From IMG/VR virus record IMGVR_UViG_2693429562_000008: 6,181 bases of DNA; one strand, written 5' to 3'. The position numbers were made by a program, and so were the translations under genes. Shown one piece after another: positions 5,373 to 6,023 of the stretch (positions within the stretch are counted from its first letter, which is position 1; every line of letters begins with the position of its first letter). Below the pieces are notes generated by a model. It saw only the letters and a program-made list of their open reading frames with translations, did no database searches and was not told the origin of the DNA. The stretch comes from a virus. Taxonomy: Duplodnaviria > Heunggongvirae > Uroviricota > Caudoviricetes.

Positions 5373-5400
5373 AGCCCCTCTCCGGAGGGGCTGTTTATAT
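5373..5400 (+). terminator. candidate intrinsic terminator
   Basis: 8-bp GC-rich stem AGCCCCTC / GAGGGGCT with TCCG tetraloop, followed by GTTTATATTGATTTTGT. Confidence 0.45.
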
Positions 5401-5424
5401 TGATTTTGTCAGATGTGAGTAAAC

Positions 5425-5458
5425 TCCTTATGGACTTTGTTGTTTTAGTCCATAAGGA
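5425..5458. repeat. perfect 12-bp inverted repeat (TCCTTATGGACT / AGTCCATAAGGA) with 10-nt loop
   Basis: Read directly from the sequence. It overlaps the stop codon and last codons of the minus-strand ORF. Confidence 0.8.
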
Positions 5459-5763
5459 CATATTTGCAGAGTGCAACGGTTATTAAAGCATTCATTCAAT
5501 ACGTTATCTGTATTTGTAGGGCATTCCTGGCTATTTTTGATTGAATTCCAGAATGTTTTATTGAATGGTACTACGTTGTAAATGGTTACAGGTAGCACTT
5601 TGTTATTGAGCATGATGCCTGTGTGAGTCAGTGTAAATATACTTTCAGGAGGTAAGAAAGCATCCGATTGATACCAGATTATTAATTTTATTTTACTCCA
5701 TATGACTGAAAAAGATATTCCGCATGATGGCTGGATAACTGTATCAATCACAATCCACTTCAT
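5428..5763 (-). CDS. hypothetical protein, 111 aa, in AT-rich island
   Basis: Minus-strand ORF with AGGA 6 nt upstream of the ATG (mRNA AAGGAAACUAAAUG). Local GC is roughly 30-35%. Five Cys, Ile-rich; no domain recognised. Confidence 0.5.
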
Positions 5764-6023
5764 TTAGTTTCCTTGTTTATGCCTTGCTGGTGATGTTCTG
5801 AAAAGTATAAATGATATTTTTGAATGTAAACCATAGAGCAGAATTATTTTTCTGATGTTGTTTATTGTTTATTTAAATGCAGGGTGGTTTATATCTCGTC
5901 TTGTAGTTTATCCATGCATATCTGCTTGATAATCAGGTTTTTATTTAAGGTATGGTTTTGTGTTTTTTCTGTATTACATGTCAGGTATTTTAAAGAATTA
6001 TTTTTCAGATGGTGGAAAGAACC

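Follow-up and report, generated by a model that had tools for sequence, protein, structure and literature searches.

The minus-strand open reading frame examined here is, judged by its sequence, iraL, a gene for an RssB anti-adaptor of the IraM family, present as the Shigella allele. The DNA analysed, referred to below as the window, was a 6,181-nt stretch of a Caudoviricetes record (IMGVR_UViG_2693429562_000008), and the region is very probably (about 93%) an iraL moron of a lambdoid prophage with its own sigma-70 promoter, whose product would block RssB and thereby stabilise sigma-S. iraL is already in the literature, function and start site included, and the present result is a correct annotation and not a discovery. 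The original prediction, made from the letters of the sequence, had placed a 111-aa frame at 5428-5763 (minus strand) and had counted five Cys in a protein with no motif that was recognised. The frame was confirmed, running from an ATG to a TAA, and the five Cys are C14, C81, C92, C97 and C102. The lack of a recognisable motif did not hold up, as the protein is the named and experimentally characterised anti-adaptor IraL. Two plus-strand ORFs overlapping the iraL region (5346-5486 and 5884-6087) were considered and found no support.

The iraL gene of uropathogenic E. coli CFT073 (formerly ycgW, c1429) was described by Hryckowian et al. (mBio 2014, PMC4045071) after its recovery in a screen for sigma-S effectors. 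[quoted passage not shown] According to the literature, expression of iraL increases at 37 C and upon mutation of fur; no site has been mapped.

The window protein carries S74 where CFT073 IraL carries L74, and the remaining 110 of the 111 residues were identical (WP_000871291.1). At the nucleotide level the two coding sequences had two differences in 336 nt, the S74 change and one synonymous change, and identity to the CFT073 iraL region as a whole was 99.3% over 854 bp. Hryckowian et al. 2014 delimited an iraL clade by its similarity to CFT073 iraL, with nucleotide identity of at least 95% across the whole CDS and at least 96% over -100 to +33, and the window CDS and promoter region fall within it. 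The protein scored 162 bits against NCBIfam NF007393 (IraM; PRK09919), with a cut-off of 121, residues 1-110 aligning with profile positions 1-113/114, and it matched chain A of PDB entry 8twd (IraM residues 1-78) with E=6e-31. K-12 IraM shared 61% protein identity with it. A Pfam scan returned nothing for IraL or K-12 IraM, PmrD (PF11183) included, even at E<=10, while PF11183 was assigned to all IraL homologues in a precomputed table. Among the PHROGs the IraL family is phrog_4407, which is labelled 'unknown function'.

The exact S74 protein, named Shigella IraM, was found on at least 999 contigs. When positions 5300-6181 (882 nt) were searched by megablast against 5426 complete E. coli genomes, 2885 gave a match and 1382 matched over at least 80% of the query. 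The ORF is annotated as 'anti-adapter protein IraM' in the E. coli genomes matched, and the gene was also present in records of induced phages. Pairwise dN/dS against relatives at 99-61% identity was 0.10-0.28, and the iraL frame is therefore under purifying selection. Breakage of the frame in related prophages had been named at the outset as grounds for giving up the prediction; the frame was intact at 99%, 88%, 75% and 72% identity.

These observations bear on whether iraL could instead be a remnant that has lost its function and is decaying within a degraded prophage, which we regard as highly improbable. The surroundings give that reading something to build on, since the region is rearranged, an IS600 end at 6154 truncates the neighbouring DUF1737 gene, duplicated modules and masked runs occur in the window, and truncated IraL fragments are present in the protein collection. 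Against it, the frame, ribosome-binding site, promoter hexamers and start site are all intact, the identical protein recurs across the contigs counted above, dN/dS is well below 1, and deletion of iraL in Shigella sonnei has a sigma-S phenotype (PMC4045071).

A functional iraL agrees with the signals upstream of the coding sequence. A Shine-Dalgarno sequence, AGGA, lies on the minus strand at 5770-5773, 6 nt 5' of the ATG, and bears out the well-spaced ribosome-binding site that had been predicted. The minus strand read from 5796 is ACATCACCAGCAAGGCATAAACAAGGAAAC, which is the sequence obtained by 5'-RACE for CFT073 iraL (PMC4045071). This match sets the start at 5796 and gives a 33-nt 5' UTR (5764-5796, minus strand), predicted to be unstructured; in CFT073 the coding start was placed at +33 (PMC4045071). 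The idea that the ORF is independently transcribed is thus upheld by a published start site. Upstream of this start a candidate sigma-70-type promoter was read on the minus strand (5804-5830), with TTTACA (5830..5825), a 15-nt spacer and TATACT (5809..5804), followed by 7 nt to the start. It was not listed by a consensus scan that allowed spacers of 16-18 nt because its spacer is 15 nt. The hexamers were the same in CFT073 and in the 88% relative and read ATTACA/TATGAT in the 75% relative. Across -100 to +33 (5764-5896), 2 of 133 positions differed from CFT073, one at -1 and one between the Shine-Dalgarno sequence and the ATG.

Beyond the promoter lies an AT-rich divergent intergenic region (5831-6023, about 27-30% GC) that is shared with the DUF1737 gene and, in an alignment with the 88% and 75% relatives, was homologous in all iraL-type cassettes. 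Control by PhoP, as for iraM, was considered and rejected, as one near-match to the PhoP box was found where 1.6 were expected by chance. In this the locus differs from K-12 iraM, which is induced by PhoP and Mg starvation. The promoter and flanks of K-12 iraM are likewise unrelated to those of iraL, the homology being confined to the CDS, and K-12 iraM sits beside prophage e14 and not in a late operon.

In the mechanism proposed, the lysogen would express iraL from the gene's own sigma-70 promoter; transcription would begin at position 5796 of the minus strand and run antisense to the late genes of the phage. The resulting protein of 111 aa would combine a beta-barrel like that of PmrD (residues 1-78) with a tail rich in Cys, and its target would be the N-terminal receiver domain of the adaptor protein RssB. 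Once bound, RssB would be unable to pass sigma-S (RpoS) to the ClpXP protease, and sigma-S would be stabilised even in exponential growth. We infer that the S74 allele acts like CFT073 IraL on RssB and sigma-S; residue S74 adjoins the interface residue at position 75.

Remote-homology and structure searches, suggested along with the original prediction, led to IraM (8twd_A) by both sequence and predicted fold. A profile search of 1.84 billion representatives yielded 95 family clusters. An AlphaFold model built on 13 close homologues had a pLDDT of 37 and was discarded, and the prediction was rerun on an alignment of 48 diverse sequences drawn from these clusters. The resulting AF2 model had a mean pLDDT of 81.5, with 83-94 over residues 1-80. 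Its best Foldseek match was 8twd_A (IraM), with a TM(target) of 0.89 and an rmsd of 1.2 A, and the next were three PmrD structures with TM of 0.70-0.75 at 15% identity. IraL residues 1-78 are accordingly modelled as a PmrD-like antiparallel beta-barrel with a helix, the fold of the IraM family.

Residues of IraM that contact RssB were taken from the RssB-IraM crystal structure 8TWD of Brugger et al. 2023 (PMC10844676). All five residues of cluster I (I4, I6, W22, K26 and I42), which faces the receiver domain, were identical in the window protein. In cluster II, C14, F18 and W30 were kept and T13S and L75I were changed (3/5 identical), and in cluster III, I61 and Y62 were kept with changes of H63N and I64V (2/4 identical); P66 of the IraM interface was also kept. 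This degree of conservation is compatible with binding to RssB. Clusters II and III of IraM face the RssB C-domain and linker, and the changes on this side agree with the published binding of IraL to the RssB N-domain only, a point on which IraL is reported to differ from IraM (PMC4045071). The IraM co-crystal is an approximate guide to IraL because of the different binding mode reported in the same paper.

The fold also raises the question of whether IraL acts as PmrD does on another response regulator, for example by protecting phospho-PmrA, with a secondary effect on RpoS. PmrD structures (PDB 4HN7, 2JSO, 2RQX) share the beta-barrel and helix of IraL residues 1-78 and were the sole fold matches after IraM, PmrD is likewise a small protein that binds a response-regulator receiver domain, and the IraM paper notes both a PmrD-like fold and an increase in RssB phosphorylation caused by IraM (PMC10844676). 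PmrD is only about 15% identical to IraL, however, and is without the Cys4 tail, and its partner is PmrA, with protection from dephosphorylation as the outcome. [quoted passage not shown]

Beyond the barrel, IraL residues 79-107 (5443-5529, minus strand) form a Cys tail with the arrangement C81-x10-C92-x4-C97-x4-C102-P103. Across 48 family members, some of them only 20% identical, the most conserved columns were C81, C92, C97, C102 and P103. K-12 IraM (YcgW/ElbA) resembles IraL in its fold, in cluster I, in its four C-terminal Cys and in a CPYG motif, and differs in its length of 107 aa. The solved structure of IraM covers residues 1-78 and lacks the tail, which had been removed for crystallisation and was characterised as flexible and less conserved (Brugger et al. 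2023, PMC10844676). No paper on a metal-site or redox role of the IraL/IraM Cys tail was found in the literature searched. Two further ideas, which together we hold to be unlikely, are that the tail is a metal-binding or redox-sensitive module, or that iraL is shut off by antisense read-through from the late operon at prophage induction. If the former were true, how stable or active IraL and IraM are could depend on the module, and sigma-S proteolysis would be tied directly to metal or oxidative status.

The window represents the late region of a lambdoid prophage in which the genes for RusA, the Q antiterminator, tRNAs, a DNA methylase and the DUF1737 protein all lie on the plus strand, so that iraL is antisense to the late operon as originally described. 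A GC content of 30-35% had been estimated for the island, and 32.5% was measured over 5400-6023, with 34.5% in the CDS, 29.6% over 5764-6023 and 49-54% in the flanking phage genes. Phage JLK-2012 matched the window at 5128-5358 and 6031-6153 and carried 171 unrelated bases in place of 5359-6030, and a unit of approximately 5359-6030 is therefore exchangeable. The cassette was also found in different lambdoid backbones, including Stx2 phages. These patterns support the earlier suggestion of independently acquired cargo. With its own promoter, antisense orientation, deviant GC content and presence/absence variation, the iraL cassette is a true phage moron.

Divergent from iraL is the 5' remnant of a DUF1737 gene of the nanS-p type (6024-6153, plus strand; Pfam PF08410, E=9e-16), which is cut after 43 codons at 6153/6154 by the IS600 end (6154-6181). 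This end abuts an IS600 transposase, and a 32-nt IS600 end was multicopy in E. coli genomes and plasmids. An IS600 terminus at the end of the window is in keeping with a Shigella-type source. Homology to CFT073 ended at 6153. The CFT073 prophage slot is otherwise alike, with Q, tRNAs, an AT island with DUF3927, STnc100, iraL, DUF1737 and lysis genes, and in both loci iraL encodes 111 aa and has the same 5' UTR and start sequence, promoter hexamers and 12-bp stem. The window differs from CFT073 in the residue, synonymous, -1 and Shine-Dalgarno-to-ATG changes given above, in an extra methylase-tRNA module upstream and in the IS600 insertion downstream.

Several other features of the window were recorded. 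The sequence upstream of STnc100 together with its 5' part occurs in three copies (2523-2739, 4571-4650 and 5128-5358), and there are two tRNA arrays (1739-1991 and 4286-4535). The extra module, about 2.4 kb in length and additional relative to both CFT073 and E. coli 042, lies between these direct repeats. Runs of N occupy 2740-3049 (310 bases), 3116-3256 (141 bases), 3335-3390 (56 bases) and 4651-5127 (477 bases), and in strain 300709 three of these four correspond to a region with a small ORF and the 5' part of a DNA methyltransferase gene. A first AT-rich island spans 2000-2622 and includes an ORF at 2102-2455 (117 aa) that matched only phrog_2873, 'unknown function', and an ORF at 2491-2622 for a DUF3927/TciB-like small protein (phrog_1470).

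Convergent with iraL is the small RNA STnc100 (Rfam RF02076; 5213-5402, plus strand), which was detected over the full model at 132.4 bits with a gathering score of 47. No other Rfam family was found in 5128-6181 at E<=1. STnc100 ends 25 nt before the iraL stop codon. In every cassette type examined it faces an iraL-type gene tail to tail, at a distance of 11-37 nt from the stop codon, and this pairing was seen in four other loci, namely CFT073, the 88% relative, the 75% relative next to stx, and Stx2c phage 1717. In the numbering of each locus STnc100 occupies 6914-7103, 2481-2693, 3578-3788 and 3835-4046, respectively. A terminator scan identified an intrinsic terminator for STnc100, consisting of a GC hairpin and a T-run, at 5372-5393 (plus strand), and among the cassette types examined this hairpin was invariant while its flanks diverged. 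The hairpin was considered as a terminator for iraL and rejected; the T-run is on the plus strand only, and the hairpin is therefore that of STnc100. Conceivably, the hairpin acts in both directions.

The STnc100 terminator stands between iraL and plus-strand transcription from upstream. The unlikely idea mentioned above, of an antisense shut-off of iraL by late-operon read-through, concerns this conserved convergent arrangement of STnc100 and iraL. The repeated TTGACT-containing segment was also considered as a Q-dependent late promoter pR' with its tR'. This was rejected on the grounds that the segment is STnc100, that it lies downstream of stxB in Stx phages, and that a separate terminator-like hairpin follows directly after Q. 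The latter, with a T-run, is located at 1676-1695 (plus strand), 40 nt after Q and before the first tRNA, and as a candidate tR' of the late operon it is preferable to the terminator of STnc100.

At the 3' end of iraL, a perfect 12-bp inverted repeat with a 10-nt loop (5425-5458, minus strand) overlaps the last codons and the stop, as had been noted from the sequence. Its arms, TCCTTATGGACT (5425-5436) and AGTCCATAAGGA (5447-5458), are 100% complementary and cover codons P103-L106 on one side and S110-P111-stop on the other. Nowhere else in the window is there a perfect inverted repeat of at least 12 bp whose loop measures 3-12 nt, and 300 shuffles did not produce a single one. As RNA it folded with -17.5 kcal/mol (z = -5.1), with five G-C among its 12 pairs. 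The 3' flank of the stem on the iraL strand, GUUUACUCAC / GUUUACUC (GUUUAC), contains only three U, and the terminator scan reported no site on the minus strand of the window; for both reasons the repeat is not an intrinsic terminator, in line with the earlier remark that it is not of the standard kind.

The perfect stem was identical in the classic iraL copies examined (CFT073, 042, strain 300709 and phage 640R1), which are at least 97% identical, so that their agreement is uninformative on function. In the 88% relative the stem retained 7 of 12 pairs (-4.8 kcal/mol) and in the 75% relative 9 of 12. In the phage 1717 homologue and K-12 iraM it was absent, the proteins ending ...CPYG(L/R)K-stop, four codons earlier. 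The four extra codons (QQSP) were present in the classic iraL lineage and in the 88% and 75% relatives; IraM and the phage 1717 homologue are without them. No compensatory changes in the stem were found in the diverged homologues (the 88% and 75% relatives, phage 1717 and K-12 iraM), and the changes that break pairs in the 88% and 75% relatives were mostly synonymous third-position changes; Y104 TAT to TAC and G105 GGA to GGG are naturally occurring examples. The repeat is non-random, and by this comparison of sequences it is specific to the classic iraL lineage and not a conserved element of the family.

Two readings of the repeat were weighed. It may have no function of its own, being a quasi-palindrome that came to be perfect in the classic iraL lineage, for example by templated strand-switch mutation, to which we assign slightly less than even odds. 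The uncompensated and mostly synonymous loss of pairs in the 88% and 75% relatives, the absence of the stem from phage 1717 and K-12 iraM, and the near-identity of every copy with a perfect stem all point this way. On the other side, the three substitutions that seem to have arisen within the iraL lineage (a C to T in the left arm and two changes to G in the right arm) all create pairs, the stem is strong, and the shuffles produced no perfect 12-mer. The derived changes hint at selection or at templated correction of a quasi-palindrome, but these contrary points lose force, as perfection was the very reason for singling the repeat out. Alternatively, and more tentatively, the repeat could be a 3' stem-loop that protects the end of the iraL mRNA, or a weak terminator just before the convergent STnc100 terminator. 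Such a role is a guess because the stem is broken without compensation in relatives and absent in distant ones; the stop codon also lies inside the stem, and terminating ribosomes would therefore melt it. An incidental quasi-palindrome is considered somewhat more likely than a stabilising or terminating role.

Relatives of IraL are also carried by Stx phages. A third clade, consisting of IraL-like genes at 71-75% identity, was located by tblastn in 41 records of phages, most of which are Stx2c or Stx2a phages, and among the matches listed most phage records left the genes unannotated. In O157:H7 phages they are antisense, between stx2B/STnc100 and nanS-p, and in Stx2c phage 1717 the gene is at 3501-3824 (locus numbering). 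As in the window, the Stx2c and Stx2a phage genes (phage 1717 gp43 and phage 2851, among others) are antisense, convergent with STnc100 and upstream of nanS-p/DUF1737, with 71-75% protein identity to IraL and a homologous upstream region. They differ in lying directly downstream of stx2B, in encoding either 107 or 111 aa, and in having a stem that is imperfect or absent. A 2014 survey using PCR and BLAST specific for iraL described STEC with high log-phase sigma-S and without iraL (PMC4045071). The tests of that survey were specific to the iraL sequence and the Stx-phage clade would therefore have escaped them. This clade might explain high log-phase RpoS in iraL-negative STEC.

By raising RpoS in growing uropathogenic E. 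coli and Shigella, IraL would represent a prophage gene that rewires a core stress regulator of its host.
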